Origin: Escherichia coli
Lineage (GTDB): Bacteria > Pseudomonadota > Gammaproteobacteria > Enterobacterales > Enterobacteriaceae
Direction: 5' to 3' (one strand)
Length of the DNA stretch: 64,000 nucleotides
Assembly: GCF_024502345.1 (NCBI RefSeq)
Contig: NZ_JALDNN010000002.1
Notes under the pieces: model-generated
The model's database searches: none
Told to the model about the DNA's origin: nothing
The model's input: only the letters and a program-made list of their open reading frames with translations
Part shown: piece after piece, positions 3,331 to 44,805 of the stretch
How the letters are laid out: every line of letters begins with the position of its first letter
Numbering within the stretch: position 1 is the first letter of the stretch
Position numbers and translations under genes: made by a program

Positions 3331-4150
3331 GGCACTGTTGCAAAGTTAGCGATGAGGCAGCGTTTTGTCTTATTCAAAGGCCTTACATTTCAAAAACTCT
3401 GCTTACCAGGCGCATTTCGCCCAGGGGATCACCATAATAAAATGCTGAGGCCTGGCCTTTGCGTAGTGCACGCATCACCTCAATACCTTTGATGGTGGCG
3501 TAAGCCGTCTTCATGGATTTAAATCCCAGCGTGGCGCCGATTATCCGTTTCAGTTTGCCATGATCGCATTCAATCACGTTGTTCCGGTACTTAATCTGTC
3601 GGTGTTCAACGTCAGACGGGCACCGGCCTTCGCGTTTGAGCAGAGCAAGCGCGCGACCATAGGCGGGCGCTTTATCCGTGTTGATGAATCGCGGGATCTG
3701 CCACTTCTTCACGTTGTTGAGGATTTTACCCAGAAACCGGTATGCAGCTTTGCTGTTACGACGGGAGGAGAGATAAAAATCGACAGTGCGGCCCCGGCTG
3801 TCGACGGCCCGGTACAGATACGCCCAGCGGCCATTGACCTTCACGTAGGTTTCATCCATGTGCCACGGGCAAAGATCGGAAGGGTTACGCCAGTACCAGC
3901 GCAGCCGTTTTTCCATTTCAGGCGCATAACGCTGAACCCAGCGGTAAATCGTGGAGTGATCGACATTCACTCCGCGTTCAGCCAGCATCTCCTGCAGCTC
4001 ACGGTAACTGATGCCGTATTTGCAGTACCAGCGTACGGCCCACAGAATGATGTCACGCTGAAAATGCCGGCCTTTGAATGGGTTCATGTGCAGCTCCATC
4101 AGCAAAAGGGGATGATAAGTTTATCACCACCGACTATTTGCAACAGTGCC
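3331..4150 (-). mobile_element. IS26 copy 1 (820 bp)
   Basis: 14-bp IRs GGCACTGTTGCAAA at both ends; flanking 8-mers differ (cgattagg vs ggcagacg), so no target-site duplication. Confidence 0.97.
3383..4087 (-). CDS. tnpA: IS26 transposase Tnp26 (234 aa)
   Basis: [25 protein letters not shown]... canonical Tnp26 sequence. Confidence 0.97.
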   Translation of the reverse strand: MNPFKGRHFQRDIILWAVRWYCKYGISYRELQEMLAERGVNVDHSTIYRWVQRYAPEMEKRLRWYWRNPSDLCPWHMDETYVKVNGRWAYLYRAVDSRGRTVDFYLSSRRNSKAAYRFLGKILNNVKKWQIPRFINTDKAPAYGRALALLKREGRCPSDVEHRQIKYRNNVIECDHGKLKRIIGATLGFKSMKTAYATIKGIEVMRALRKGQASAFYYGDPLGEMRLVSRVFEM

Positions 4151-6033: not shown

Positions 6034-6080
6034 AACAAGATAACAAGATAACAAGATAACAAGATAACAAGATAACAAGA
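6034..6080. repeat. ACAAGATA 8-bp direct repeats (about 6 copies), putative centromere/operator of the parA locus
   Basis: Tandem acaagata units; a second shorter block lies at 7165-7194 on the other side of the operon. Confidence 0.6.
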
Positions 6081-6082
6081 TA

Positions 6083-6385
6083 TTATCGTTGTTTTGCTTC
6101 TGCGATTAATCTGGATATCTCTGTTTTTGATAAACTTTTTAGTGCCTCTACCGCTGCCCTGACTACGTCAGAACGATTCACTCTGCTTTTACCTGAAATC
6201 ATTTCACCCGTTATAAGATCATCAATGTCTTTTAAGTTTTCTTCAAAAAAGGAAATGCTCACTGGTTTTGCTTTACTTACAGCCAATGGTCTCTCTGAAG
6301 TCACTTTGGTATTATCAATACCAGCAGTACCACCGTTAATAAACGCTGCCTCATCACGAGATGGAGTATTTGCTCTATTTCTCAC
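6083..6385 (-). CDS. small partition protein (ParG/ParB-like partner of ParA)
   Basis: 100-aa ORF with 4-bp overlap to the upstream ParA gene; typical type Ib organisation. Confidence 0.6.
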   Translation of the reverse strand: MRNRANTPSRDEAAFINGGTAGIDNTKVTSERPLAVSKAKPVSISFFEENLKDIDDLITGEMISGKSRVNRSDVVRAAVEALKSLSKTEISRLIAEAKQR

Positions 6386-7011
6386 AGAATAACCTCTTTA
6401 ACTAACGATTCGATTTCTTGTTGTGCTTTGTCATTTTGCGTTTCAAATATTGTCATTGATTCTGCCCAAGCATCTCGATGCGCTTTTCGATCACAAACTC
6501 GGGAGTTAGCCAGCCGCATTTCAGGATAATCCTTGAGTACGTCAGCTGCCTGATTTGCTTCATTGACAAACATGTTCGTGGGCGTCATGTTTAAAACGAG
6601 ATATCCCCGGACGTCCTCATTAAAATCTTTTGCTGCTGTAAAAACAGAGCATGTATGAGGCACTACATCCAGGTCCATCTGAGAAGGCCGCAACGGAGAA
6701 ATGAATACGTCAGCGGCCATCAACCCACTACGCATTTCTGCACTGTCGCGGCCAGCACAGTCTGCGATGACAAAGTCATAAGATTTCTCGTGTTCCTTTA
6801 GCATGGCTTTGATGTTGCCTGTTGCGCCAGTAACCGGAATATGGGGAAGATCTTCAGGACGATTGTTGTACCAGGTCAATACAGATTTCTGGTCATCTGC
6901 GTCGACAATGATCACTCGATTGCCCAGTGACATCAGATACGCAGCTATAGATACCGCCAGTGTACTTTTACCAACCCCACCCTTTTGACTACCCAATACT
7001 ATTATCATCAC
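6382..7011 (-). CDS. parA: ParA-family partition ATPase (small, type Ib)
   Basis: 209 aa; deviant Walker A GSQKGGVGKST at N-terminus. Confidence 0.85.
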   Translation of the reverse strand: MMIIVLGSQKGGVGKSTLAVSIAAYLMSLGNRVIIVDADDQKSVLTWYNNRPEDLPHIPVTGATGNIKAMLKEHEKSYDFVIADCAGRDSAEMRSGLMAADVFISPLRPSQMDLDVVPHTCSVFTAAKDFNEDVRGYLVLNMTPTNMFVNEANQAADVLKDYPEMRLANSRVCDRKAHRDAWAESMTIFETQNDKAQQEIESLVKEVIL

Positions 7012-7164: not shown

Positions 7165-7194
7165 GGATAACAAGATAACAAGATAACAAGATGG
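7165..7194. repeat. ACAAGATA direct repeats (about 3.5 copies)
   Basis: ggataacaagataacaagataacaagatgg upstream of parA. Confidence 0.6.
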
Positions 7195-7269: not shown

Positions 7270-7580
7270 GGTAGTATCAACCAGTTATGACCGCGTGAAG
7301 CAAAAAGTGGGGTGTAGTGGGAAGCCTTTGAATCTTCGGTGTGTCGAAGTGGGGAGTTGGTGAGACAAATTTGGTAAAAGGTGGGGAGAAGCTGGATTGC
7401 TTTTCACTTCTATCCAAAAAGGTGTGTTGAAGTGGGAAGGTGCGTAAGTATATACAGATAAAAACACACATTTAACAGGTTCTCATCCCGCTACAACACA
7501 CCTATTAAGACGTTTAAGGCGAGGCTTCCCCTTACAACACACCTATCAAAATGTTTAAGAAGAGAGCTCCCGTTTCAACA
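7270..7580. promoter_or_regulatory. iteron cluster downstream of repA (repeats containing ACAACACACCT/GGTGTGT)
   Basis: Multiple spaced repeats of aggtgtgttg / acaacacacct. Confidence 0.6.
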
Positions 7581-7584
7581 CACC

Positions 7585-8478
7585 TTATACAGCTGTTCCT
7601 GGTTTCAGATTTGCTGAGCGACGGTGGATCAGAATGAAAGTCTCTTTACCTTTTTTGGTGATGCTGTGGTCAAGGTACCCAATATCCTGCAACTGCTTGA
7701 GGGCCAGTTTAATGATACGGTTCTGTTCCTTTACCGGAGAGAGCAATGAGAGCCTGTCTCGTATTCGTTTGAAAGATATGGGGACTGGGTTCGTAGGCAG
7801 ACTTTCGATGAAAGTATACAGGGCCTGAGCTGCTTCCTTTCGGGTTAAAGCATTTATCGGCTTATGTCGTAGCAGAACAGTGTAATCAGTTTGGTAGAGT
7901 TCCCATAGTCGCTGATCAGCTTCAAGTTCCACCTGGTCGTTTGCAAAATCCAGTTCACCTGTCTTAAGCAAACCTGTTACGGAAACTTTTTGAAGGCCCT
8001 CTGAGTCGCTACGGGTAAAGGTAATGGTCTTGCCACGTATCCTGGTCAAAGCTTCTGAAATACTTTTTCTAAGACGGGAATCGAATCTCTTAGACTCAAA
8101 GCGGCACATTCCAGCAAACTCATGAAAAGTAAGCTTAATGCTGTTGGTTTTTAAACCGTACTTACTGAAAGCTTCTATGATACCGACCCATACCTTGAAG
8201 TCGATGGCCATACTCAACCGTTCACCGGTTATACGAATATCGTCGTAACCCTCCCGCCTTGAGAATTCCAAATCCTTGAGAACAGAGGTCGCATCGATTG
8301 ATGTTCTAGTGCCCTTTGCAGGCCTGCTTGAAGGAACAAAAACATTTAATCTCATCAGGGCTACAGGCTGAACTGTGGCCTTACTTGTGACGGTGAGTTT
8401 ATTGTTAACACTTTCACAATCTGGACCTATAACCTCGCCGATATAAACATTCTCATTCATATAGTTATATCCATTCAT
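7585..8478 (-). CDS. repA: replication initiator RepA (Rep_3 family, RepFIB-like)
   Basis: 297 aa; Rep_3-type sequence; iterons on both sides. Confidence 0.85.
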   Translation of the reverse strand: MNGYNYMNENVYIGEVIGPDCESVNNKLTVTSKATVQPVALMRLNVFVPSSRPAKGTRTSIDATSVLKDLEFSRREGYDDIRITGERLSMAIDFKVWVGIIEAFSKYGLKTNSIKLTFHEFAGMCRFESKRFDSRLRKSISEALTRIRGKTITFTRSDSEGLQKVSVTGLLKTGELDFANDQVELEADQRLWELYQTDYTVLLRHKPINALTRKEAAQALYTFIESLPTNPVPISFKRIRDRLSLLSPVKEQNRIIKLALKQLQDIGYLDHSITKKGKETFILIHRRSANLKPGTAV

Positions 8479-8504: not shown

Positions 8505-8625
8505 ATTAACTCTTTCCCGTTTCGACACACCTTTCTTCCCGATTCTACCCACCCTTACCCCGTTTTGACACACCTTTTTCCCGCTTCAGAACACCTTTCT
8601 CCCACTACGACACACCTGAAATCGC
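8505..8625. promoter_or_regulatory. iteron cluster upstream of repA (GACACACCT repeats)
   Basis: cgacacacctttc...ttgacacaccttttt...cagaacacctttc...cgacacacctgaaa direct repeats. Confidence 0.65.
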
Positions 8626-8871: not shown

Positions 8872-10143
8872 TTAACCGATCCTCGCAACGGGGATATCTC
8901 TCCAGCGAGTGGTGTACGCAGGGGAGAGCATATCGCGTTTCATTTGCCAGGATGGCACAATTCCTCTACCGGCAAACCATACTTTACCCAGCCCTGAGTT
9001 GTTGATCCCGTCCAGAACCCTCATCAGCTCAGCACTGTGAGGGCGTGGCGGGCGTTCGTCGAACAGCTGCAGCTGCGAAACGCCGGAGCCGGTGAAGTCA
9101 TTCAGCATAACTCCGGCTTTGGCATACCTGTGCCCATCCCTCCAGATACGCTCCAGAGCCGTTGTGGCGGCTGCAATGATGTCCCTGGTGTCCTGAGTGG
9201 GTGTAAGAAGTTTTTCCGTAGCCACGTTGCCGTAGTAAGGCTCTTTAACGGCGAACGGAGACGTTTTGATGAAAACGGAAATATGCCGGCAATACTGGTG
9301 CTCTTTACGCAGCTTTTCAGAGGCCCGCTCTGCGTGCTGACAGATAGCCTGACGGAGTGACTCGTACTCCGTGATCTTCACGCCAAAACTGCGGCTGCAG
9401 ACAATTTGCTGTTTCGTCGGAGGGGCTTCCTCAAGCGAAAGGCAGCTTTCCCCGTTCAGTTCCCGTACCGTTCGCTCAAGGACGACAGAAAAATTTTTGC
9501 GGATGAAGGCCGGGTTCGTCAGAGCCAGATCGAGCGCGGTCTTAATGCCCAGTACATTCAGCTTGCGTGCAATACGGTTACCCACCCCCCAGATTTCTTC
9601 AACCGGCTGCAGTGAAAGCAGTTTCCGCGTTCTCTGCGGATTTCCCCTGGTCAGAGCAAGTACGCCACGAAACTGTTTCCACTCTTTTGAGGCCCACTGG
9701 GCTGATTTTGCGAGGGTCTTCGTTGGCCCGGCGCCCACGCCAATGGTAAGGCGGGTACAGTCATACACGTGCTGACGCAGCTGCCGGCCGAAGTCCTCAA
9801 GCTCCATACAGTGCTCCACGCCGGTCAGGTCGAGGAACATCTCATCAATTGAATACTGTTCCACCCTGGGGGCCAGTTCCTCCAGGCTGTTCATCACGCG
9901 CGCCGACATCGAAGCATAAAGTTCATAGTTACTTGAAAACGCATATATTTTTTCCGGGTATCTTTCGTTTTTTATCTGAAACCACGGAGTTCCCATTTTG
10001 ATCCAGCGCTTCGCCTCGGCACTGCGAGCGATTACGTTCCCGTCGTTGTTGCTCAGGACGACTATCGGCTTTCCTTTCAAATCCGGTCGGAAAACACGTT
10101 CACAGCTGGCATAGAAGCTGTTCACATCGGCCAGGGCAAACAT
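8872..10143 (-). CDS. umuC: error-prone DNA polymerase V subunit UmuC (Y-family polymerase)
   Basis: 423 aa; [22 protein letters not shown]... N-terminus and Y-family polymerase motifs. Confidence 0.95.
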
Positions 10144-10574
10144 CAGTACATCTCCCTCGGGCGGTGGATGATATGCGTGACGACGCCAAAGATATCCAGC
10201 TCATCGGGGTCAGGATAAGTCGGCGACCAGGAGGCATTCATGGGCTGCAGCGTCAGTCGAGGCGTCAGCAGAAGCCGTTTAACCGTAAACTCCCCCTGTA
10301 CGCTGGCGACAACGATATCGCCGTGCCGCGGCTTTTCAGCACTGTCCACAACCAGCAGATCGCCATTGTACAGACTACCGTCCGCCATGCTGTCTCCGCT
10401 GGCACGCAGGTAGTACGTCGCGCTCGGATGCCGTATGCAGTAATCATGGAGATCCAGATCGGACTCGACATAGTCAGCGGCAGGGCTGGGAAAACCGCAG
10501 CTGGCCAGATCGGCAAACAATGGATGAGCCTGTGGCGGGTGTTCTTTCCCGGTGCTGAAAAGCTGTAGCTTCAT
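10143..10574 (-). CDS. umuD: UmuD (LexA-like self-cleaving peptidase S24)
   Basis: 143 aa from ATG at 10574 ([13 protein letters not shown]...), preceded by GGAGGA RBS; stop overlaps umuC start; the 270-aa track ORF is an upstream over-extension. Confidence 0.9.
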
Positions 10575-10617: not shown

Positions 10618-12562
10618 TGCGCCGGGAGACCGGTAGAGATCAAGGGGTGAAAGTCCCCGACCATTGAAGGACCAGCAATCCACAAGGTCCCCGAGTCATG
10701 CGTTGCATACCGCGAGGTATGGGGCGAAGCGTTGACAGGGGTGTTGACAGGCCAGCCATTGAGCCACGAAATGTATATTAAATTACCGGGTGCCGACGTT
10801 GTACTGTTAACGGAAGGCAACATCATAGGGTGCGATACTGCGAGTGCCACATGGACCCGGCGGGGTCTGAGACCCTGGCATGTCAATACGATCTCTACGC
10901 GGGAACCGGGAGATCTCCCCTCTGACCATCTGCCAGTGTCGGAGATGGCCCGCACCGGGAAGACGAGGAGTCATAGCCGGTGATGTACGGAGAGGAGAAG
11001 TCGGACTCGCTCATAGTAGCGGCGAAGCAGGCGAACAACCCGAAAGGAGCGGAGTCAGTGGAGCGAAGGAGCGGGGCCAAGGGGAACGTGGAACAGCCAC
11101 ACATGCGCCGGACACAGAGCCGGGAAAGCATGTCACAGAGGCTGTCACGCGTGCGGGAAGCTGCGAAGCAGCGGAAGAAAGAACGGTTTACAGCATTGTT
11201 CCACCTGCTGACAGTCGAAGCACTGGAAGCCGCATTCCTCTCCCTGAGCAGGAAAGCGGCCGCCGGAGTGGATGGCATCAGGTGGATGGACTACGCCGGA
11301 AACATGAAGAACAACATAACAGATCTGCACCGGAGGCTACATCAGGGCAGCTACAGGGCGCAGCCCGGCAGGCGTCACTACATCCCAAAAGCGGATGGAA
11401 AACAACGCCCGCTCGGCATCGCCTCGCTGGAGGACAAGATCGTCCAGTATGCGCTGGTGAAAATCCTGAACGCAGTCTATGAAAACGACTTTATGGGGTT
11501 CTCATACGGGTTCAGACCCGGGCGAAGCCAGCACGATGCACTGGACGCACTGGCCACAGGGCTGGTACGCACTAACGTAAACTGGGTACTGGATGCCGAC
11601 ATCAGTCAGTTCTTCGACAGGGTGAGCCACGAATGGCTGATCAGGTTCACAGAGCATCGGATCGGCGACCGGAGCGTAATCAGGCTCATACGTAAGTGGC
11701 TCACAGCCGGGACGTTGGAGGAGGGTCAATGGCGAGCAACGGAGGAAGGCACCCCACAGGGTGCGGTCATCTCACCGCTGCTGGCAAACATATACCTCCA
11801 CTACGTCTTCGATCTGTGGGCGCATCAGTGGCGACGTCGCTATGCCACAGGCAATGTGGTAATGGTCAGATACGCCGATGACATCGTCATCGGGTTCGAC
11901 AAACGATACGATGCCCGGCGCTTCCGTATAGCCATGCAGCGCAGACTGAGGGAGTTCGGACTCACGGTTCACCCGGAGAAAACCCGTCTGATGGAGTTCG
12001 GCCGCTTCGCTGCCGAAAACCGTGCCATCAGGGGAAAAGGCAAACCAGAAACGTTCAACTTCCTCGGGTTCACGCACATCAGCGGGAAAGATCGCAACGG
12101 CAGGTTCATGCTGATACGAAAGACCCGCCGGGATCGGATGACGGCAACTCTGAAAGCCATCAAAGACGGTCTGCGAAGGCGCTGGCATTACTCAATCCCC
12201 GAACAGGGAAAATGGCTCAGGAGAGTGGTTCAGGGATACCTGAACTATCACTCGGTACCGGGCAACTTCCCCACCATGCAGAAGTTCAGGACACACGTAA
12301 CAAACCTCTGGCGCCGGGCGCTCAGGCGCAGGAGCCAGAAGGATGATACGACCTGGACGAAAGCAAACAAACTGGCAGCCGCATGGCTACCAAGGGTTCG
12401 GGTTCTTCATCCATGGCCTGTGGAGCGGTTCACCGCCAGACACCCGAGGCAGGAGCCCGGTGCGTAAATCGCGCACGCCGGGATCTGTGCGGGGGGTATC
12501 CGGTAACGGGTATCCCTACCGCGACATATTTAACAGCGTGACGATAATCCAGATCGCCTGCC
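10617..12562 (+). mobile_element. group II intron (bacterial, RT/maturase-encoding); 3' boundary approximate
   Basis: GTGCG at 10617-10621, about 360 bp structured leader, RT/maturase ORF, GNRA-loop hairpin near the 3' end; IS1 abuts at about 12563. Confidence 0.7.
10983..12467 (+). CDS. group II intron reverse transcriptase/maturase
   Basis: RT motifs incl. YADD (...MVRYADDIVIGF...), maturase domain, no endonuclease domain. Confidence 0.9.
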   Translation: MYGEEKSDSLIVAAKQANNPKGAESVERRSGAKGNVEQPHMRRTQSRESMSQRLSRVREAAKQRKKERFTALFHLLTVEALEAAFLSLSRKAAAGVDGIRWMDYAGNMKNNITDLHRRLHQGSYRAQPGRRHYIPKADGKQRPLGIASLEDKIVQYALVKILNAVYENDFMGFSYGFRPGRSQHDALDALATGLVRTNVNWVLDADISQFFDRVSHEWLIRFTEHRIGDRSVIRLIRKWLTAGTLEEGQWRATEEGTPQGAVISPLLANIYLHYVFDLWAHQWRRRYATGNVVMVRYADDIVIGFDKRYDARRFRIAMQRRLREFGLTVHPEKTRLMEFGRFAAENRAIRGKGKPETFNFLGFTHISGKDRNGRFMLIRKTRRDRMTATLKAIKDGLRRRWHYSIPEQGKWLRRVVQGYLNYHSVPGNFPTMQKFRTHVTNLWRRALRRRSQKDDTTWTKANKLAAAWLPRVRVLHPWPVERFTARHPRQEPGA

Positions 12563-12618
12563 GGATAATGGTGCCAACTTACTGATTTAGTGTACGATGG
12601 TGTCTTTGAGGTGCTCCA

Positions 12619-12894
12619 GTGGCTTCCATCTCCATCAGTTGTCCCTCCTGCTCAGCTACTGAAGGCGTGGTGCGTAACGGTAAAAGTACTGCCGGACATC
12701 AGCGCTATCTCTGCTCTCACTGCCGTAAAACATGGCAGCTACAGTTCACTTACACCGCCTCTCAGCCCGGTACGCACCAGAAAATCATTGATATGGCCAT
12801 GAATGGCGTTGGATGCCGGGCAACCGCCCGCATTATGGGCGTTGGCCTCAACACGATTTTACGTCACTTAAAAAACTCAGGCCGCAGTCGGTAA
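12619..12894 (+). CDS. insA: IS1 InsA
   Basis: [91 protein letters not shown]. Confidence 0.95.
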
Positions 12895-13316
12895 CCTCAC
12901 GCATACAACCGGGCAGTGACGTCATTGTCTGCGCGGAAATGGACGAACAGTGGGGCTACGTCGGGGCTAAATCACGTCAGCGCTGGTTATTTTACGCCTA
13001 TGGCAGGATGTGCAGGACGGTGGTGGCACGCGTCTTTGGTGAGCGTACTCTGGCCACGCTGGAGCGTCTTCCGGGCCTGCTGTCGGCCTTTGAGGTCGTG
13101 GTATGGATGACGGATGGCTGGCCGCTTTATGAATCCCGCCTGAAGGGAGAACTGCACGTTATCAGCAAGCGATATACGCAGCGAATTGAGCGGCATAACC
13201 AGAATCTGAGGCAGCATCTGGCAAGGCTGGGCAGGAAGTCACTGTCGTTCTCAAAATCGGTGGCGCTGCATGACAAAGTCATCGGGCATTATCTGAACAT
13301 AAAACACTATCAGTAA
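12813..13316 (+). CDS. insB: IS1 InsB (expressed as InsAB' by -1 frameshift)
   Basis: 167-aa ORF overlapping insA 3' end in -1 frame. Confidence 0.9.
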
Positions 13317-13331
13317 GTTGGAGTCATTACC

Positions 13332-13633
13332 AACCAGTTCACCACCTACTCGCTCCGCGATTGTGGCAGTCTTCGAAATCCCCGGACGATCCGCCTTTAT
13401 GAAAGTCTTGCTCAATTCAAATCTTCAGGCTTATGGGTTACTACTCATGCTTGGTTAAATGACCGTTTCGTCTTACCGGAATCCCAGCAGAAGAACTTGG
13501 CAGAGTTGAAACGATCTTTCCTTGATCCTGCACTCAAGCAGATAAATGAGAAAACACCTTTACTTGCTAAGTATAGTATTGATGATTCAGGAAAATTTCT
13601 GTTCTCAATAATTGATAAGCAAAATCCCGTCTG
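13332..13633 (+). pseudogene. 3' fragment of a replication-initiator-like gene, 5'-truncated by IS1
   Basis: Frame open from the IS1 end; ...TTYSLRDCGSLRNPRTIRLYESLAQF... resembles the Rep_3 motif; ends at stop 13631-13633. Confidence 0.4.
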
Positions 13634-13683
13634 ACATAAATCAGCACACATGAGCCTGTCATTTGACAAATTTTTGTCATGAA

Positions 13684-14183
13684 GATGGGCGGATTTCCAC
13701 ACAGCACCGGCGCCCGGTAAGGTGGGCGGATTCCCACACGGCACCGGCGCCCGGTAAGGTGGGCGGATTCCCACACGGCACCGGCGCCCGGTAAGGTGGG
13801 CGGATTCCCACACGGCACCGGCGCCCGGCAAGATGGGCGGATTTCCACACAGCACCGGCGCCCGGTAAGGTGGGCGGATTCCCACACGGCACCGGCGCCC
13901 GGTAAGGTGGGCGGATTCCCACACGGCACCGGCGCCCCGCAAGATGGGCGGATTTCCACACAGCACCGGCGCCCGGTAAGGTGGGCGGATTTCCACACAG
14001 CACCGGCGCGCGGCAAGGTGGGCGGATTTCCACACGGCACCGGCGCCCGGCAAGGTGGGCGGATTTCCACACAGCACCGGCGCCCGGCAAGGTGGGCGGA
14101 TTCCCACACGGCACCGGCGCGCGGCAAGGTGGGCGGATTCCCACACGGCACCGGCGCCCGGCAAGGCGGGCCGATTCCCATAT
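13684..14183. repeat. tandem array of about 13.5 copies of a 37-bp GC-rich repeat
   Basis: Contiguous units g[ga]tgggcggatt[tc]ccacac[ag]gcaccggcgc[cg]cgg[tc]aag with two alternating variants. Confidence 0.95.
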
Positions 14184-14406
14184 CGACATGTATGTAGCTT
14201 GTGTTATCTGTGGATTGTGCAGCTCAGCGGGTCGCTGGTCGTATGGCGGAGTGTCCCCCGTAACCGGCCGCGTGCGGCCGCTAACGCGCAGTACGGCGCC
14301 GCGTCCCGCAGGCGGGCCGCCGTTCCCGCGCGCAGCACTGCGCACCCCCGTGGGGGACGTGCGGCAGCTGCGTGGCGGTGACCGGCACGAACCGCATGTT
14401 AGGTCG

Positions 14407-14709
14407 AGTGACGGCTTCACAAATAGCTTCAGCGTCTGCAGCATCATGCTTATTGGTTTTAACATAGGGTTTGACGAACTGAGGGGCCATCAGTTTGACA
14501 TTATGGCCCATCGATATCAGTTTATTGGCCCAGAAATGAGCAGATGCACAGGCCTCCATGCCGATCAAACAGGGTGGGATGTTGGCAAAAAAGGAGGCCA
14601 TTTGTGCCCGTCTGAGTTGTTTGTTGAACAACCGTTTTCCGTGCTCGTCAACCCCATGGATCTGGAAAACGTTTTTTGCCAAATCGATTCCAATAGTTTT
14701 AACGTTCAT
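14407..14709 (-). pseudogene. IS110-family transposase N-terminal fragment
   Basis: MNVKTIGIDLAKNVFQIHGVDEHGK...; sequence then degenerates into GC-rich non-homologous frame. Confidence 0.7.
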
Positions 14710-14914
14710 GATAGCAGCGCTCCGTTCAATGAGTGACGATTTATCGTCCCACTGTGGCACAAGAGATGGGAGGCGACCATTCCATTAACAAAGCCGGTAT
14801 TTAGCCGTTGATGCGTCAATACCGTAGGTAAATTTAGCAACTAGAAACCATACCATTATTGGCGGCAAAGTAATTGCAAATAAAAATGCTAAGCCTCTTT
14901 CTCTATCGTCCATT

Positions 14915-15331
14915 TCAGCGCTCCTTTTTTGGTTCCCAGACTTTATAGCCGTTACGTTCAACCTCTGCTTTTGCCGCTTTGGTTTTACCCGGTTCTGCTA
15001 TCGAACGTAGGAGGATCAGCGTTTCAATAGCGAGTGATTCATGCAACATCATCTGTCCTGCCGGTGGGAATGTTACGCCAGATAGCGTTTCGGTTATTGC
15101 CTTCAGCTCATCGCGCAGTGAGCCAAAATCCGCATCTGAAGCACGGTCAAAAAGGTAATCCAGTTTGCGATTTACGTCGCTCAGCTGGTTGGTAACTATT
15201 TTCAACCCGGACTCCAGATCACCTGGGCCAGCTTCAAGGCAGCGCCGCAGATACTCTGACCGATTACCACCTGAAACCAGGTCTATATAGGCCAAAAGTT
15301 CATCTGATACTTTTGCGGTTATTGTTGGCAT
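14915..15331 (-). CDS. hypothetical protein with N-terminal ribbon-helix-helix-like segment
   Basis: 138 aa; MPTITAKVSDELLAYIDLV...RSEYLRRCLE pattern suggests RHH DNA binding; function unknown. Confidence 0.5.
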   Translation of the reverse strand: MPTITAKVSDELLAYIDLVSGGNRSEYLRRCLEAGPGDLESGLKIVTNQLSDVNRKLDYLFDRASDADFGSLRDELKAITETLSGVTFPPAGQMMLHESLAIETLILLRSIAEPGKTKAAKAEVERNGYKVWEPKKER

Positions 15332-15654
15332 TCAGTCCTCACTTTGTGCATTTTTTAAACGAAAAAAGGGTGTCTAATACGGTGAAATCATAGTATTACC
15401 AAAGTAATAAATAAAAAATTCTTTAAATCAGTAAGTTAGATTAGATTTGTAATACCTGGGTAATACCGCAGTATGGCTAAATTTGGTTTTTTTCTTTTAA
15501 ATCAGTGAGATAGCGTGATTTATCACGCTGCGTTAGGTGTATAGCAGGTTAAGGGATAAAAAATCATCTTTTTTTGGTAGGGCGATCTCCGTAGGTTAAG
15601 GGTCATTTGGCTAAAAAGCGTCCTATTCTTTGATGGTCATGCTTGCATGACCAT

Positions 15655-15830
15655 CTGAGCAACCAAAAACTACAGATAAACTACAGATAAACTACAAAAA
15701 ACGTTTTGCCTTAGTGTTGGGAGACTACAAATAGACTACAATAAAACTACAAATAAACTACAAATAAACTACAAAAAACGTGACAGACTACAAATAGACT
15801 ACAATAAAACTACAGATAAACTACAAAACT
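15655..15830. repeat. iteron-like array of about 14 direct repeats (ACTACA[AG]ATA[AG]A, 11-bp periodicity)
   Basis: aactacagataaactacagataaactacaaaaaacg...gactacaaatagactacaataaaactacaaataaactacaaataaa... Confidence 0.9.
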
Positions 15831-15886
15831 CGATTGACCCCTTCTTACGAGTGTTGTAGAGTCATTTTCATACAACGGAGGGGGTT

Positions 15887-16273
15887 ATGAATAAACCAGC
15901 AGATCTGAAACCCCGCAACTTATCGGCTGCTGTCAGATTGCGCCTAAATGAAATCGAGAACTGGCTGGACAGAGGGCTAACGCGGCATGAAATTGCTGAA
16001 ATCCTCGACAGCGAATACAGCTTTTCGGTAACAGCCAAAGGGCTTGAGATGGCACTGTATAGAACGCGGCAAAACCGAAAAAATGTATTGCACAATACAC
16101 ATGATAAGAGTAGCGCGAAGGGTGCAGCGGAAAGTGTATTGCACAATACACAACCGTCTGAGCCTGAAGCGCAGGAAAGTAAAAAAGCAGAGAGTCCCGG
16201 CATTATTGATAAAGAATTCTTCAAGAAAATCGGTGAGAATTTCGACCCTAAGAAGTTCAACAAAAAATTCTGA
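15887..16273 (+). CDS. hypothetical DNA-binding protein (candidate iteron-binding adaptor)
   Basis: 128 aa; GGGGG RBS; helix-turn-helix-like ...GLTRHEIAEIL...; directly downstream of the iteron array. Confidence 0.5.
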   Translation: MNKPADLKPRNLSAAVRLRLNEIENWLDRGLTRHEIAEILDSEYSFSVTAKGLEMALYRTRQNRKNVLHNTHDKSSAKGAAESVLHNTQPSEPEAQESKKAESPGIIDKEFFKKIGENFDPKKFNKKF

Positions 16274-16281
16274 GGTGATTT

Positions 16282-16468
16282 ATGAAAGTAGCGGTAATTA
16301 ATTACAGTGGCAGTGTTCGTAAAACCTTAATTTCATCTTACCTGTTAGCCCCGCGCCTGACTGGTGCAAAGTTCTATGCGGTAGAGACTATCAACCAGTC
16401 TGCTTCCGATCTGGGTATTGAAAATGTGACCAGTTTTAAAGGTGACGACTTCTCACGTTTGATTGAGG
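16282..16468 (+). pseudogene. N-terminal fragment of a possible actin-like (ParM-type) ATPase, 3'-truncated by IS1
   Basis: MKVAVINYSGSVRKTLISS... resembles the ParM N-terminus (MLVFIDDGSTNIKLQW); frame runs into IS1 at 16469. Confidence 0.35.
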
Positions 16469-17007
16469 GGTAATGACTCCAACTTACTGGTAGTGTTTTA
16501 TGTTCAGATAATGTCCAATGACTTTGTCATGCAGTTCTCCCTTCAGGCGTGATTCATAAAGCGGCCAGTCATCCGTCATCCATACCACGACCTCAAAGGC
16601 CGACAGCAGGCCCGGAAGACGCTCCAGCGTGGCCAACGTGCGTTCACCGAATACGTGCGCCACAACCGTCCTCCGTATCCTGTCATACGCGTAAAACAAC
16701 CAGCGCTGGCGTGATTTAGCGCCGACGTAACCCCACTGTTCGTCTATTTCCGCGCAAACAATGACGTCACTGCCCGGTTGTATGCGTGAGTTTACCGACT
16801 GCGGCCTGAGAGGCGGTGTAAGTGAACTGTAGCTGCCATGTTTTACGGCAGTGAGAGCAGAGATAGCGCTGATGTCCGGCAGTACTTTTACCGTTACGCA
16901 CCACGCCTTCAGTAGCTGAGCAGGAGGGACAAGTGATGGAGATGGAAGCCACTGGAGCACCTCAAAACCACCATCATACACTAAATCAGCAAGTTGGTAG
17001 CATTACC
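16469..17007 (-). mobile_element. IS1 copy b, internally deleted (539 bp)
   Basis: Both IS1 ends present; insA and insB carry internal deletions relative to copy a. Confidence 0.85.
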
Positions 17008-31502: not shown

Positions 31503-33024
<1,522 letters not shown>

Positions 33025-33948: not shown

Positions 33949-34768
33949 GGCACTGTTGCAAATAGTCGGTGGTGATAAACTTATCATCCCCTTTTGCTGA
34001 TGGAGCTGCACATGAACCCATTCAAAGGCCGGCATTTTCAGCGTGACATCATTCTGTGGGCCGTACGCTGGTACTGTAAATACGGCATCAGTTACCGTGA
34101 GCTGCAGGAGATGCTGGCTGAACGCGGAGTGAATGTCGATCACTCCACGATTTACCGCTGGGTTCAGCGTTATGCGCCTGAAATGGAAAAACGGCTGCGC
34201 TGGTACTGGCGTAACCCTTCCGATCTTTGCCCGTGGCACATGGATGAAACCTACGTGAAGGTCAATGGCCGCTGGGCGTATCTGTACCGGGCCGTCGACA
34301 GCCGGGGCCGCACTGTCGATTTTTATCTCTCCTCCCGTCGTAACAGCAAAGCTGCATACCGGTTTCTGGGTAAAATCCTCAACAACGTGAAGAAGTGGCA
34401 GATCCCGCGATTCATCAACACGGATAAAGCGCCCGCCTATGGTCGCGCGCTTGCTCTGCTCAAACGCGAAGGCCGGTGCCCGTCTGACGTTGAACACCGA
34501 CAGATTAAGTACCGGAACAACGTGATTGAATGCGATCATGGCAAACTGAAACGGATAATCGGCGCCACGCTGGGATTTAAATCCATGAAGACGGCTTACG
34601 CCACCATCAAAGGTATTGAGGTGATGCGTGCACTACGCAAAGGCCAGGCCTCAGCATTTTATTATGGTGATCCCCTGGGCGAAATGCGCCTGGTAAGCAG
34701 AGTTTTTGAAATGTAAGGCCTTTGAATAAGACAAAAGGCTGCCTCATCGCTAACTTTGCAACAGTGCC
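33949..34768 (+). mobile_element. IS26 copy 2 (820 bp), no TSD
   Basis: 14-bp IRs; flanks tcaattag vs gctttttt. Confidence 0.97.
34012..34716 (+). CDS. tnpA: IS26 transposase Tnp26
   Basis: Same sequence as copy 1 in the track. Confidence 0.97.
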   Translation: MNPFKGRHFQRDIILWAVRWYCKYGISYRELQEMLAERGVNVDHSTIYRWVQRYAPEMEKRLRWYWRNPSDLCPWHMDETYVKVNGRWAYLYRAVDSRGRTVDFYLSSRRNSKAAYRFLGKILNNVKKWQIPRFINTDKAPAYGRALALLKREGRCPSDVEHRQIKYRNNVIECDHGKLKRIIGATLGFKSMKTAYATIKGIEVMRALRKGQASAFYYGDPLGEMRLVSRVFEM

Positions 34769-35370: not shown

Positions 35371-36294
35371 ATGAATGCAAAAGTTTGGGTTCTGGGCGAC
35401 GCGGTGGTGGACCTGCTGCCGGAGAGCGAAGGGCGCCTGCTGCAGTGCCCTGGAGGCGCGCCGGCTAACGTGGCGGTAGGGGTTGCCCGCCTTGGCGGCA
35501 ACAGCGGATTTATCGGCCGCGTCGGCGGTGACCCGTTTGGCCGCTACATGCGTCATACCCTGCAACAGGAGCAGGTCGACGTCAGCCATATGTATCTCGA
35601 CGATCAGCACCGCACGTCCACTGTGGTCGTCGACCTTGACGACCAGGGGGAACGCACCTTTACCTTTATGGTACGCCCCAGCGCTGACCTGTTCCTGGCT
35701 GAAGAAGACCTGCCACAGTTTGCCGCCGGACAGTGGTTGCACATCTGCTCCATCGCGCTCAGCGCCGAGCCCAGCCGCAGTGCTACCTTCGCGGCTATGG
35801 AGAACATCAAACGTGCCGGTGGCCGGGTGAGCTTTGACCCTAATATCCGCCTGGATCTCTGGCAAGATCAGAACCTGTTGCACGCCTGTCTCGACCGCGC
35901 CCTGCGTCTGGCGAACGTGGTGAAACTGTCCGAAGAAGAGCTGATACTCATCAGCGGGAGTAATGATATCGCGCAGGGGATCGCCAGCATCACTGAGCGT
36001 TATCAGCCTGAATTACTGCTGGTGACTCAGGGTAAAGCGGGCGTCATCGCCGCATTCCAGCAGCAGTTTATCCATTTCAGCGCTAAACCGGTTGTCAGCG
36101 TGGATACCACCGGTGCGGGCGATGCGTTTGTCGCCGGACTGCTTGCCAGCCTTGCTGCCAACGGGATGCCGGCGGATATCAATGCCCTGGAGCCAACGCT
36201 CGCTCTGGCGCAAACCTGCGGTGCCCTGGCAACCCTGGCGAAAGGCGCGATGACTGCCCTGCCATACCAGCGCGATCTACACCGCCAGATTTGA
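35371..36294 (+). CDS. scrK: fructokinase ScrK
   Basis: 307 aa from ATG 35371 with GGAGGG RBS; ribokinase/pfkB-family motifs (...VDTTGAGDAFVAG...). Confidence 0.95.
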   Translation: MNAKVWVLGDAVVDLLPESEGRLLQCPGGAPANVAVGVARLGGNSGFIGRVGGDPFGRYMRHTLQQEQVDVSHMYLDDQHRTSTVVVDLDDQGERTFTFMVRPSADLFLAEEDLPQFAAGQWLHICSIALSAEPSRSATFAAMENIKRAGGRVSFDPNIRLDLWQDQNLLHACLDRALRLANVVKLSEEELILISGSNDIAQGIASITERYQPELLLVTQGKAGVIAAFQQQFIHFSAKPVVSVDTTGAGDAFVAGLLASLAANGMPADINALEPTLALAQTCGALATLAKGAMTALPYQRDLHRQI

Positions 36295-36344
36295 TCCTAA
36301 ATACCGTCGTACGCGGTCCACTTTGTTGCATCCATCACACTTAT

Positions 36345-36356
36345 TAAACCGGTTTA
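36345..36356. promoter_or_regulatory. candidate ScrR operator palindrome TAAACCGGTTTA (scrY promoter, site 1)
   Basis: Identical 12-bp palindrome. Confidence 0.6.
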
Positions 36357-36402
36357 GCAAAATCAATTTCAAAATGTTAAATGTCGTGCTTAACATTGCA
36401 AC

Positions 36403-37977
<1,575 letters not shown>

Positions 37978-38114
37978 TGGTTAACACCTGGCGACAGTAA
38001 CCGCCGGGGCGACAAAATACGTTTCGTCGCCCCGGACACAATAACAACGAAGAGAATGCGCTCCGGCTACCACGGGACGACAACTCGAAAATCAATACGC
38101 ATTCAGAGGGTACT

Positions 38115-39485
38115 ATGGATTTTGAACAGATTTCCCGCTCGCTACTTCCGCTTCTGGGAGGCAAGGAAAATATCGCCAGCGCCGCGCACTGTGCCACACG
38201 CCTGCGCCTGGTGCTGGTCGATGACTCACTGGCCGATCAGCAGGCCATCGGCAAAATTGATGGGGTGAAGGGCTGTTTCCGTAACGCCGGACAGATGCAG
38301 ATTATCTTCGGCACCGGGGTGGTGAACAAAGTCTACGCCGCCTTTATCCAGGCGGCAGGGATTGGCGAATCCAGCAAATCGGAAGCTGCCGACATTGCGG
38401 CGAAAAAACTGAATCCTTTCCAGCGCATTGCCCGCCTGTTGTCGAACATCTTTGTGCCGATCATCCCGGCTATCGTCGCCTCCGGCCTGTTGATGGGCCT
38501 TCTGGGGATGGTTAAAACGTACGGCTGGGTCGACCCGGGTAACGCCATCTACATCATGCTGGATATGTGCAGCTCGGCGGCATTTATCATTCTGCCGATT
38601 CTGATTGGCTTTACCGCCGCCCGCGAGTTCGGTGGTAATCCTTATCTTGGCGCGACGCTTGGCGGCATCCTGACTCACCCGGCGCTCACCAACGCCTGGG
38701 GTGTGGCCGCCGGTTTCCACACCATGAACTTCTTCGGCCTTGAGATTGCCATGATCGGCTATCAGGGCACGGTGTTCCCGGTGCTGCTGGCGGTGTGGTT
38801 TATGAGCATCGTTGAGAAACAGCTGCGTCGCGTGATCCCCGATGCACTGGATCTGATCCTGACGCCGTTCCTGACGGTGATCATTTCCGGTTTTATCGCC
38901 CTGCTGATTATCGGCCCGGCTGGTCGCGCGCTTGGCGACGGTATTTCGTTTGTCCTTAGCACCCTGATTACCCACGCCGGTTGGCTGGCCGGACTGCTGT
39001 TTGGCGGTCTCTATTCGGTTATCGTCATTACCGGTATTCACCACAGCTTCCACGCCATCGAAGCGGGACTGCTGGGCAACCCATCCATCGGCGTCAACTT
39101 CCTGCTGCCGATTTGGGCGATGGCCAACGTCGCTCAGGGCGGTGCTTGTCTGGCGGTGTGGTTCAAAACGAAAGATGCCAAAATCAAAGCCATTACCCTG
39201 CCCTCGGCGTTTTCTGCCATGCTCGGCATCACCGAAGCGGCGATTTTTGGTATTAACTTACGCTTTGTAAAACCGTTTATCGCAGCCCTGATTGGCGGCG
39301 CGGTGGGCGGCGCGTGGGTGGTATCCATGCATGTTTACATGACCGCGGTGGGCCTGACGGCTATCCCTGGCATGGCTATCGTGCAGGCCAGCTCGCTGCT
39401 GAACTACATTATCGGGATGGTTATCGCCTTTGGCGTCGCCTTTGTCGTCTCCCTGGTACTGAAATACAAAACGGACGCTGAATAA
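38115..39485 (+). CDS. scrA: PTS sucrose-specific EIIBC component ScrA
   Basis: 456 aa; EIIB cysteine motif ...ASAAHCATRLRL... and polytopic EIIC domain. Confidence 0.95.
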   Translation: MDFEQISRSLLPLLGGKENIASAAHCATRLRLVLVDDSLADQQAIGKIDGVKGCFRNAGQMQIIFGTGVVNKVYAAFIQAAGIGESSKSEAADIAAKKLNPFQRIARLLSNIFVPIIPAIVASGLLMGLLGMVKTYGWVDPGNAIYIMLDMCSSAAFIILPILIGFTAAREFGGNPYLGATLGGILTHPALTNAWGVAAGFHTMNFFGLEIAMIGYQGTVFPVLLAVWFMSIVEKQLRRVIPDALDLILTPFLTVIISGFIALLIIGPAGRALGDGISFVLSTLITHAGWLAGLLFGGLYSVIVITGIHHSFHAIEAGLLGNPSIGVNFLLPIWAMANVAQGGACLAVWFKTKDAKIKAITLPSAFSAMLGITEAAIFGINLRFVKPFIAALIGGAVGGAWVVSMHVYMTAVGLTAIPGMAIVQASSLLNYIIGMVIAFGVAFVVSLVLKYKTDAE

Positions 39486-40885
39486 TGTCACATCCATCAC
39501 GCCTGCCTGCGATTTTGCAGGCTGTTATGCAGGGCCAGCCGCGCGCGCTGGCCGACAGCCACTATCCCCGCTGGCACCATGCGCCGGTGACCGGGCTGAT
39601 GAACGATCCCAACGGCTTTATTGAATTTGCCGGACGTTATCACCTGTTTTATCAGTGGAACCCGCTCGCCTGCGATCATAAGTTCAAGTGCTGGGGGCAC
39701 TGGAGCTCTGCCGACCTGCTGCACTGGCAACATGAGCCGATCGCGCTCATGCCGGATGAAGAGTATGACCGCAACGGCTGCTACTCCGGAAGCGCCGTGG
39801 ATAGTCAGGGCACGCTCACCCTGTGCTATACCGGCAACGTAAAATTTGACGACGGCAGCCGAACCGCGTGGCAGTGCCTGGCGACGGAAAATGCCGACGG
39901 CACGTTTACCAAACTCGGCCCGGTATTACCGCTGCCGGAGGGCTATACCGGCCACGTGCGTGACCCGAAAGTCTGGCAGCACGAAGGTCGCTGGTACATG
40001 GTGCTGGGCGCACAGGATTTGCAAAAGCGTGGCAAGGTGTTGTTATTCAGCTCAGCGGACCTTCATGAGTGGACGAGTCAGGGCGAAATCGCCGGTTATG
40101 GCATCAATGGCCTGGACGACGCGGGCTATATGTGGGAATGCCCGGACCTGTTTGCCCTCGGCGACCAGCATATTCTAATCTGCTGTCCGCAGGGGATTGC
40201 CCGTGAGGAAGAGTGCTACCTGAACACCTACCCGGCAGTATGGATGGCGGGCGAGTTTGATTACGCTGCTGGCGCTTTCAGACACGGCGAACTGCACGAA
40301 CTGGACGCCGGGTTTGAGTTCTACGCCCCGCAAACCATGCTTACCAGTGATGGCCGTCGTCTGCTGGTCGGCTGGATGGGCGTGCCGGAGGGCGAAGAGA
40401 TGCTTCAGCCGACCCTGAACAACGGCTGGATCCATCAGATGACCTGCCTGCGTGAGCTGGAGTTTATCAACGGTCAGCTCTATCAGCGTCCGCTACGGGA
40501 ACTGAGCGCCCTGCGCGGTGAAGCGAACGGCTGGTCGGGGAACGCCCTGCCGCTGGCACCGATGGAAATCGATTTGCAAACCCGCGGGGGCGATATGTTG
40601 AGCCTCGATTTTGGCGGCGTATTAACCCTTGAGTGCGATGCCAGCGGACTCCGCCTGGCCCGACGCAGTCTCGCCAGTGACGAGATGCATTATCGTTACT
40701 GGCGCGGAAACGTCCGCTCGCTGCGTGTTTTCATCGACCAGTCGAGCGTGGAGATTTTCATAAACGGCGGTGAAGGGGTGATGAGCAGCCGCTACTTCCC
40801 GGCCTGCTCCGGTCAGCTAACATTCTTCGGCATCACGCCGGACGCATTCTGCTACTGGCCGCTGCGAACTTGCATGGTAGAATAA
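39485..40885 (+). CDS. scrB: sucrose-6-phosphate hydrolase ScrB (GH32)
   Basis: 466 aa; GH32 motifs ...GLMNDPNGF..., ...WECPD... Confidence 0.95.
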
Positions 40886-40914
40886 GCGTTTTGCTTCAGG
40901 CTCATGGCGTCGTA

Positions 40915-41919
40915 ATGAAAACCAAACGCGTAACCATTAAAGATATAGCCGAACAGGCTGGCGTCTCCAAAGCGACCGCCAGCTTGGTACTGAATGGTCG
41001 TGGCAAGGAGCTGCGCGTGGCGCAGGAAACGCGTGAGCGCGTACTGTCGATTGCCCGTAAGCATCACTATCAGCCAAGCATTCATGCCCGCTCGCTGCGC
41101 AACAACCGCAGCCACACCATCGGGCTGGTGGTGCCGGAGATCACCAACCACGGCTTTGCGGTCTTTGCCCATGAGCTGGAGATGCTGTGCCGCGAGGCGG
41201 GCGTCCAGCTGTTGATCTCTTGTACTGATGAAAACCCCGGTCAGGAGAGCGTGGTGGTCAATAATATGATTGCCCGCCAGGTCGACGGGATGATCGTCGC
41301 TTCCTGTATGCACAACGATGCCGACTATCTCAAACTCAGCCAACAGCTGCCAGTGGTGCTGTTTGACCGGTGCCCCAATGAAAGCGCGCTGCCGCTGGTA
41401 ATGACCGATTCGATTACCCCAACGGCGGAACTGATTTCCCGCATCGCGCCTCAGCATAGCGATGAGTTCTGGTTTTTAGGCGGTCAGGCGCGTCTGTCGC
41501 CCTCCCGCGATCGTCTGACCGGGTTCACGCAGGGTTTGGCTCAGGCGGGTATTGCCCTGCGCCCGGAATGGGTGATCAACGGCAATTACCACCCCAGCTC
41601 CGGCTATGAGATGTTTGCCGCACTCTGCGCGCGCCTTGGGCGGCCGCCTAAGGCGCTATTCACCGCCGCCTGCGGGCTGCTCGAAGGGGTTCTGCGCTAT
41701 ATGAGCCAGCACCATTTACTCGATTCCGATATTCATCTGACGAGCTTTGACGATCACTATCTTTATGATTCGCTGTCGCTGCGTATCGACACTGTCCAGC
41801 AGGATAATCGCCAGCTGGCCTGGCACTGCTACGATCTGATAAGCCAGCTGATCGAGGGCGATACGCCCGAAACGCTACAACGCTACCTGCCCGCAACGCT
41901 GCAGTTTCGGCATCAGTAA
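40915..41919 (+). CDS. scrR: LacI-family sucrose repressor ScrR
   Basis: 334 aa from ATG 40915 ([28 protein letters not shown]...); the longer track ORF is an upstream over-extension. Confidence 0.9.
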
Positions 41920-42302
41920 TAACTGAGTATTTTTGAATAGCGACGCTGGATGCCGATTGGTCTGAACGGCCCGGCGATCGCCGGGCATACCATTGGCGCC
42001 GGCATCGTGCTGGTAACGACCATATTAGGGCGTTTGAGCAGTTGCCTGGCCTCACGCAGGGAGACTGGATTAACTGACCGCTGACAAAATGCCTGACAAT
42101 GACAGTCCGTTTTGTGCCAGATATAGTCATTCACACCCTGAGAGTTACACTTTTAAGTGATTCAGGGTATGCGCTTATTGGTTACGAATATTGTGCCAGA
42201 ATCATGTGATTCGATGATTGCCGCTTTGCTTTCGAGCCAGTAAGTGCTCCACGTTCGCTAACGAATACTCAGGGCATGCAGAAAAACGGTAATGACTCCA
42301 AC

Positions 42303-42806
42303 TTATTGATAGTGTTTTATGTTCAGATAATGCCCGATGACTTTGTCATGCAGCTCCACCGATTTTGAGAACGACAGCGACTTCCGTCCCAGCCGTGCCA
42401 GGTGCTGCCTCAGATTCAGGTTATGCCGCTCAATTCGCTGCGTATATCGCTTGCTGATTACGTGCAGCTTTCCCTTCAGGCGGGATTCATACAGCGGCCA
42501 GCCATCCGTCATCCATATCACCACGTCAAAGGGTGACAGCAGGCTCATAAGACGCCCCAGCGTCGCCATAGTGCGTTCACCGAATACGTGCGCAACAACC
42601 GTCTTCCGGAGCCTGTCATACGCGTAAAACAGCCAGCGCTGGCGCGATTTAGCCCCGACGTATCCCCACTGTTCGTCCATTTCCGCGCAGACGATGACGT
42701 CACTGCCCGGCTGTATGCGCGAGGTTACCGACTGCGGCCTGAGTTTTTTAAATGGCGGAAAATCGTGTTGAGGCCAACGCCCATAATGCGGGCGGTTGCC
42801 CGGCAT
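42303..42806 (-). CDS. insB: IS1 InsB
   Basis: 167-aa ORF. Confidence 0.9.
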
Positions 42807-43000
42807 CCAACGCCATTCATGGCCATATCAATGATTTTCTGGTGCGTACCGGGTTGAGAAGCGGTGTAAGTGAACTGCAGTTGCCATGTTTTACGGCAGT
42901 GAGAGCAGAGATAGCGCTGATGTCCGGCGGTGCTTTTGCCGTTACGCACCACCCCGTCAGTAGCTGAACAGGAGGGACAGCTGATAGAAACAGAAGCCAC
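42725..43000 (-). CDS. insA: IS1 InsA
   Basis: 91-aa [25 protein letters not shown]... Confidence 0.95.
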
Positions 43001-43073
43001 TGGAGCACCTCAAAAACACCATCATACACTAAATCAGTAAGTTGGCAGCATCACCCCCGGTAATGACTCCAAC

Positions 43074-43577
43074 TTATTGATAGTGTTTTATGTTCAGATA
43101 ATGCCCGATGACTTTGTCATGCAGCTCCACCGATTTTGAGAACGACAGCGACTTCCGTCCCAGCCGTGCCAGGTGCTGCCTCAGATTCAGGTTATGCCGC
43201 TCAATTCGCTGCGTATATCGCTTGCTGATTACGTGCAGCTTTCCCTTCAGGCGGGATTCATACAGCGGCCAGCCATCCGTCATCCATATCACCACGTCAA
43301 AGGGTGACAGCAGGCTCATAAGACGCCCCAGCGTCGCCATAGTGCGTTCACCGAATACGTGCGCAACAACCGTCTTCCGGAGCCTGTCATACGCGTAAAA
43401 CAGCCAGCGCTGGCGCGATTTAGCCCCGACGTATCCCCACTGTTCGTCCATTTCCGCGCAGACGATGACGTCACTGCCCGGCTGTATGCGCGAGGTTACC
43501 GACTGCGGCCTGAGTTTTTTAAATGGCGGAAAATCGTGTTGAGGCCAACGCCCATAATGCGGGCGGTTGCCCGGCAT
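43074..43577 (-). CDS. insB: IS1 InsB
   Basis: 167-aa ORF identical to copy c in the track. Confidence 0.9.
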
Positions 43578-43771
43578 CCAACGCCATTCATGGCCATATC
43601 AATGATTTTCTGGTGCGTACCGGGTTGAGAAGCGGTGTAAGTGAACTGCAGTTGCCATGTTTTACGGCAGTGAGAGCAGAGATAGCGCTGATGTCCGGCA
43701 GTGCTTTTGCCGTTACGCACCACCCCGTCAGTAGCTGAACAGGAGGGACAGCTGATAGAAACAGAAGCCAC
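43496..43771 (-). CDS. insA: IS1 InsA
   Basis: 91-aa ORF identical to copy c. Confidence 0.95.
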
Positions 43772-43807
43772 TGGAGCACCTCAAAAACACCATCATACAC
43801 TAAATCA

Positions 43808-44805
<998 letters not shown>

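Follow-up and report, generated by a model that had tools for sequence, protein, structure and literature searches.

The downstream iteron clusters of plasmids P1 and F, incA and incC, are dispensable, negatively control copy number and act as incompatibility loci. F also carries sopC, which is made up of twelve 43-bp repeats. General roles of iterons located downstream of rep in titration and handcuffing have been reviewed (PMC12361487). For the IncN1 replicon, the 37-bp tandem array is identified as an iteron array (PMC9412624; PMC6052338; PMC5027574), and passages in these papers trace the binding of RepA to the 37-bp units, and a role in copy number and incompatibility, to Papp & Iyer 1995 and Krishnan & Iyer 1990; in its passage on the array, PMC6052338 cites both for the control of replication and copy number. 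A truncated form, in which IS1 interrupts repA and the array is retained, has been published under the name 'region N' of IncR plasmids, where it adjoins retA and is common to many IncR plasmids. Here, we analyzed a 37-bp tandem array in a 64-kb stretch of Escherichia coli DNA (hereafter the window). We are highly confident that it represents the iteron I (group I iteron) array of a pCU1/R46/pKM101-type IncN1 replicon and survives as an orphan. The element is ordinary and already has a name and published descriptions, among them descriptions of precisely this truncated arrangement: orphan IncN1 iterons in a widespread, IS1-bounded remnant.

Anatomy of the 37-bp array

With Tandem Repeats Finder, we detected one array, spanning 13682-14180 (37-bp period, 13.5 copies, 93% matches without indels; score 823), which is nearly identical to the interval (13684-14183) and copy number (about 13.5) of the original prediction. 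Read in register from 13682 on the + strand, the array consists of 13 full units, each with zero to four mismatches to the consensus AAGGTGGGCGGATTCCCACACGGCACCGGCGCCCGGC, and ends in an 18-bp partial unit (AAGGCGGGCCGATTCCCA) at 14163-14180, giving 13 x 37 bp plus a final 18-bp core and thereby 14 RepA-type cores. Each unit is composed of an 18-bp core (AAGGTGGGCGGATTYCCA) followed by a 19-bp G+C-rich spacer, and the G+C content of the array is 71%, compared with about 50-55% in the surrounding region. When up to three mismatches were allowed, the core AAGGTGGGCGGATTCCCA matched 14 times in the window, always on the + strand, always within the array and at a spacing of exactly 37 bp, and all 14 of these cores are well preserved, with zero to two mismatches. 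Because only 0.05 matches are expected from shuffled sequence, the repeat is real and far beyond chance.

The units had been described as two alternating variants, which does not match what we observed: there are eight distinct unit sequences, arranged in the order ABBCABDAEFGHC. Six columns of the unit are polymorphic, and two of these (positions 15 and 22) are linked and define two main unit types, T/A and C/G, together with one recombinant unit. The two types follow each other without regular alternation along the array. The earlier statement that unique spacers are absent does hold, as the units are contiguous and head-to-tail, which rules out a CRISPR array. A structured RNA is likewise ruled out, as Rfam covariance models gave no match at E<=1 in the region 13200-14600.

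The original prediction also mentioned a repeat-protein remnant, and indeed - strand open reading frames of 204-262 amino acids cross the array and some public records annotate a 'hypothetical protein' here, as would be the case if the repeat were, or had once been, protein-coding within a long open reading frame. We give this reading practically no chance. The period of 37 bp is not a multiple of three, so that the frame shifts with each unit, the consensus unit is stop-free in all six frames, and the homologous array of the IncN1 plasmid R46 is intergenic, located after repA. In addition, translations of the array open reading frames had no family match in Pfam or NCBIfam, and a coding tandem repeat is ruled out by this result together with the frame arithmetic. 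Across the array, the - strand is free of stops in all three frames, and on the + strand, TAA arises only from the unit variant that ends in T. The earlier interpretation of the long open reading frames as repeat artefacts is therefore borne out by the stop-free consensus, the period and the lack of a protein-family match. 'Hypothetical protein' genes across the array are found in public records that match 13677-14465 (e.g. OW967901.1 and OW968081.1); such calls are almost certainly false and stem from the stop-free repeat.

Correspondence with the IncN1 replication region of R46

We compared the locus to R46 (NC_003292), in which repA is located at 31743-32462 and is followed by a 37-bp array of 6.5 copies at 32510-32749. 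Positions 13332-14378 of the window are colinear with this part of R46 and comprise repA codons 140-239, the 37-bp array and a CUP-like element. The consensus of the R46 array (AAGGTGGGCGGATTTCCACACAGCACCGGCGCCCGGC) differs from that of the window at 2 of 37 positions, as determined with Tandem Repeats Finder and direct alignment. R46 also contains five 22-bp repeats just upstream of repA, at 31553-31658, and these repeats, when reverse-complemented, correspond to the 18 bp with which each 37-bp unit begins. Consistent with this, a search for the core in R46 identified seven matches downstream of repA (+ strand, 37-bp spacing) and five upstream (- strand, 22-bp spacing). As the 22-bp repeats of R46 contain this core too, the 37-bp unit can be understood as an initiator-type core plus a spacer. 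Judging from the helical repeat of DNA, a spacing of 22 bp (about 2.1 turns) would put neighbouring sites on a single helical face, and a spacing of 37 bp (about 3.5 turns) would put them on alternating faces.

The features that characterize IncN1 iteron I are found in the window: tandem 37-bp units match the pCU1/R46 consensus; the array lies immediately 3' of repA and on the CUP6/resP side of the backbone, with resP itself absent; and the core is shared with the rep-proximal iterons in 14 of 14 window units. The leading suggestion of the original prediction, an iteron- or incompatibility-type determinant, is correct, with sequence comparison and literature together pointing to the iteron array of IncN1 RepA.

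The flanks of the array are consistent with this assignment. On its left, an IS1 element (IS1X3-like; 12564-13331, + strand) cuts repA with its right end; its terminal inverted repeats are located at 12564-12586 and 13309-13331, its insA and insB open reading frames at 12619-12894 and 12813-13316, and related plasmids label the IS1 beside the repA remnant as an IS1X3-family transposase. The cut falls at 13331/13332. What follows (13332-13634, + strand) was recognized by comparison with the 3' end of R46 repA as codons 140-239 of 239 plus the stop codon, with 99 of 100 amino acids and 297 of 303 nucleotides identical, so that the earlier description of a truncated rep-like gene upstream of the array can be made specific as IncN1 RepA cut by IS1. 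The first 139 codons are missing, and with them the promoter, the start codon and most of the N-terminal WH1 domain, and no open reading frame of at least 50 amino acids starts in the frame of the remnant. In PGAP annotation, the same remnant appears under 'replication initiation protein, incomplete, missing N-terminus'. Full-length R46 RepA contains the Pfam domains Rep3_N (WH1, residues 10-165) and Rep3_C (WH2, residues 178-228), is RepE-like in NCBIfam and is homologous to RepE of F; on sequence grounds, these domains and this homology place RepA in the iteron-binding initiator family.

The first iteron is separated from the stop codon of repA by a 47-bp linker (13635-13681, + strand) that is identical in R46, as is a palindrome within it, TGACAAATTTTTGTCA, at 13664-13679. 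On the 3' side of the array, the IncN1 backbone continues at 14181-14378 (+ strand), colinear with R46 32750-32960. Comparison with R46 identified most of this segment (14199-14378, + strand) as a CUP-type element (conserved upstream repeat; CUP6 in the literature), and the same interval, in the opposite orientation, is about 85% identical to three further R46 loci.

The remnant of the IncN1 replication region is ended by an IS110-family fragment (IS5075/IS4321-like; 14379-14795, - strand), and homology to R46 breaks off at 14378 and is picked up again at 14796. Residues 22-129 of the open reading frame at 14281-14760 (- strand) correspond to positions 1-117 of the 343-position IS110 transposase profile. 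The fragment holds only the first ~117 transposase codons and bridges the CUP-like element and a traJ/traK segment. As the junction at 14378/14379 lies within the transposase gene, it looks like the end-point of a deletion rather than a terminus of the insertion sequence. An IS5075 insertion downstream of IncN iterons has been recorded before (PMC6052338). Beyond the fragment, we observed an IncN-like transfer-origin module (14796-16466, about 90% identical to R46) that, by its likeness to R46, contains the 3' end of traJ and a traK-like gene of 138 amino acids (14915-15331, - strand), followed by an oriT-side intergenic region with 11-bp repeats (15667-15827), stbA (15887-16273; NCBIfam StbA_2) and the initial 63 codons of stbB, which the end of another IS1 interrupts at 16469. 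With this module, the plasmid could be mobilisable by IncN-type helpers.

Orphan status and the IncR host plasmid

In the 64-kb window, we found no 22-bp upstream iteron (<=3 mismatches), no inverted core and no core outside the array, and the AT-rich region that lies upstream of repA in R46 is missing from the window as well. A functional IncN1 replicon has an intact 239-codon repA with both WH1 and WH2, and an origin with 22-bp iterons and an AT-rich region; the window contains neither. Because repA is truncated and iterons of the upstream type are absent from the window, the array is an orphan and the IncN1 replication region is non-functional. Within the window, the array is thus a relic on an IncR-backbone mosaic plasmid that is inert in cis and can neither drive nor control replication.

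Replicon-typing tools and some papers list an IncN1 replicon on plasmids of this kind (PMC6353027; PMC10654068), and the segment might accordingly be viewed as a working auxiliary IncN1 replicon, with the plasmid being a true IncR:IncN multireplicon. We consider this very improbable, as a RepA that lacks its first 139 codons, and with them most of WH1, has no in-frame start, and the window has neither the five 22-bp iterons nor the AT-rich region that precede repA in R46. For the window, a working IncN replicon is ruled out by the truncation of repA and the loss of the upstream iterons, and for replicon typing this means that the repA stub and array are not to be scored as a functional IncN replicon. 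For annotation, the stub and array are best labeled as an IncN1 replication-region remnant, not as hypothetical proteins.

The orphan array is accompanied on its left by an IncR backbone that includes parA (6382-7008), repB (7585-8478, - strand) and umuDC (8872-10568), with a group II intron (ltrA/retA, 10983-12467) between umuDC and the IS1::repA remnant, and the closest plasmid with the same gene arrangement is typed IncR. The repB gene (7585-8478) had no NCBIfam match at E<=0.001. Five 21/22-bp repeats lie upstream of it (8513-8617) and a 41-bp repeat of 2.3 copies lies downstream (7492-7585); we presume that these are iterons belonging to the IncR replicon of the plasmid itself. Perfect 8-bp tandem repeats also flank the ParA-family gene (AACAAGAT x 6 at 6034-6082 and GATAACAA x 3.4 at 7166-7192), and they may be the partition-protein binding sites of the IncR par locus.

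Further segments of the window reflect its mosaic composition. IS26 copies are located at 3383-4099, 34000-34716 and 52472-53188, and IS1 copies at 12564-13331, ~16469-17007, 42288-43055 and 43059-43826, and these elements delimit the mosaic segments. Besides the intron next to the remnant (10983-12467), a second open reading frame for a group II intron reverse transcriptase/maturase is found at 61767-63113, and by eye, 35371-41919 appears to be a sucrose-utilisation (scr) gene cluster. A palindrome-rich 44-bp repeat (3.4-3.8 copies, 45958-46121) lies upstream of an open reading frame at 46389-46874, and the 2.1-kb segment around it is 100% identical to E. coli plasmids that annotate mobI (IncA/C conjugative transfer protein); this part of the mosaic is in all probability a fragment of an IncC oriT/mobI region. 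Another long tandem array (55637-56096; 43 bp x 10.7 copies, 94% identity), with the palindrome TGGGACCGTGGTCCCA in every unit, lies just downstream of genes for SopB-type ParB and SopA equivalogs (NCBIfam; 56185-58331, - strand) and looks like an F-type sopC centromere. Given this second array, we also considered a centromere for the 37-bp repeat; this is ruled out, as its core is shared with the rep-proximal iterons of R46 and no par genes are adjacent.

Array length, possible residual activity and comparison with known systems

The original prediction named the array a likely site of length variation and proposed a comparison of copy number across related replicons, and this comparison bears out the length variation. 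Behind the identical IS1 junction, 13 units are found in the window and in pGPT21-003_1, 24 in p2_BE2-5 and 7 in pCD74-2-2, compared with 6 full units in R46; the variants are ordered differently in the two arrays of 13 units. Longer arrays hold repeated multi-unit blocks that include the first-unit type, which points to unequal exchange of blocks, beyond single-unit slippage alone. Copy numbers of 3, 5, 7, 24.3, 28, 30 and 31 appear across papers, including 30-31 (PMC6052338), 28 (PMC9769515) and 5 (PMC6288184).

To measure lengths, we used BLAST with both flanks padded by random sequence and joined the flank matches, which worked for arrays of at most about 45 units. Among matches sampled at even intervals, a small and non-independent set, the remnants had 1.5, 6.5, 8.5 (three times), 10.5 (twice), 14.5, 15.5, 16.5 (twice), 19.5, 22.5 (three times), 24.5 (twice) and 25.5 units, with an overall median of about 15.5. 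Plasmids with an intact repA in the same remnant-flank query had about 11-42 units, and a query based on R46 gave 6.5, ~13, 31.5, 33.5, 38.5 and 39.5 units, so that intact IncN1 replicons range from about 6.5 to 42 overall. Between identical flanks, plasmids therefore carry arrays of anything between about 1.5 and about 42 units. The apparent tendency of intact replicons to have longer arrays than the remnants is only an observation, as records with an intact repA often gave the left flank only and the intact sample is small and phylogenetically non-independent.

Near-identical 37-bp units over 500 bp are difficult for short reads, a probable sequencing error has been noted in one such array (PMC6052338), and no other record has the identical array: among PLSDB and complete E. 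coli genomes we found none, the best matches listed being 98.1% and 97.3% identical. The length or variant order seen here could on these grounds be an artefact of assembly, which we regard as unlikely, as many array lengths are found in complete, closed plasmid sequences and several independent records have arrays of 13 units as well; that the array exists, and what it is, holds whatever the exact count. The absence of an identical array also fits rapid reshuffling. Length and variant order change fast, likely through unequal recombination or replication slippage between identical units. The hypervariable unit number may serve as a marker for tracking close plasmids, and it calls for caution with short-read assemblies.

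The remnant itself is widespread. When we matched a 100-bp probe across the IS1::repA junction over >=80% of its length to PLSDB, we found the junction in at least 680 plasmids, and 573 of 5426 complete E. coli genomes contain the array with its flanks. Across plasmids, the flanks share 98-100% identity, and the remnant is for this reason taken to be young.

The intact IncN1 replicon combines five inverted cores at 22-bp spacing upstream of repA with a long downstream array of auxiliary sites, which, according to the literature, is bound by the Rep_3-family initiator RepA and takes part in the control of replication and copy number. By analogy with P1 incA and F incC and with the general scheme in PMC12361487, we propose that this control would be negative and would act by titration and/or handcuffing. 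In the window, IS1 has removed codons 1-139 of repA along with its promoter and the iterons upstream. The orphan array therefore has no partner protein in cis and is a hitch-hiking relic (region N), as found in many IncR and other mosaic plasmids. At most, it might soak up RepA from a co-resident IncN1 plasmid and act in this way as an IncN incompatibility determinant; we rate the chance that such sequestration in trans is biologically significant as low.

A stronger version of this idea is that the orphan array is a selected incompatibility determinant, which sequesters or handcuffs the RepA of incoming IncN1 plasmids to the benefit of its IncR host, in which case the copy number of the IncN1 plasmid would be lowered or the plasmid displaced. 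The good preservation of all 14 cores could be read in this light, although it is expected anyway, as tandem repeats evolve in concert and the remnant is young. The remnant persists in at least 680 plasmids, usually with many units (sampled median ~15.5), yet this spread can be explained by hitch-hiking with resistance regions bounded by IS1 and IS26, and some remnants go down to 1.5 units, which gives no sign of a minimum length. Extra iterons do generally titrate or handcuff Rep proteins (PMC12361487); the sampled remnants are shorter than the arrays of intact replicons, which fits decay. Overall, we find a selected determinant of this kind doubtful. We consider it quite unlikely that orphan arrays are retained as RepA sinks in trans that destabilise or exclude IncN1 plasmids, with array length tuning the strength of the effect. 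If arrays did act as such sinks, the lengths of remnants (~1.5-25.5 units) and of intact replicons (often 31-42) would reflect different selective optima instead of decay.

We return to the orphan IncN1 iteron array as the preferred reading and compare it with the described systems. It resembles the group I iterons of pCU1/R46/pKM101 in unit length, in 35 of 37 consensus positions, in starting 47 bp after the repA stop codon, in the CUP-type sequence downstream and in having an 18-bp core in common with the 22-bp repeats. Unlike in R46, repA is truncated in the window, the origin-side iterons are gone, the array has 13.5 copies instead of 6.5, and the host is an IncR-backbone mosaic. The IS1X3::repA junction beside the retA group II intron, together with the iteron array, is that of region N. 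Compared with published examples of region N, the copy number differs (13.5 here, 24.3 in pST1023 and 5-31 in other plasmids), and the right side is an IS110-family fragment here and resP or IS903B in other region N plasmids; in F33 and HI2 hybrids, repA is cut by IS26 at other points, in contrast to IS1 here.

Among more distant systems, the array is similar to F sopC-type arrays in being a long tandem plasmid array of protein-binding units, with the binding of RepA taken from the literature. It differs from F sopC, which is bound by SopB and lies beside sopAB, in its unit, its binding protein and its position, as no partition genes are adjacent and the core is that of the rep-proximal iterons. 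The organization of the IncN1 replicon is like that of P1 incA and F incC, with few origin iterons upstream of rep, a larger cluster downstream and a Rep_3/RepE-like initiator. Unlike P1 incA and F incC, the IncN sequences are unrelated to them, and the units are 37 bp long, strictly tandem, much more numerous and more variable in number.
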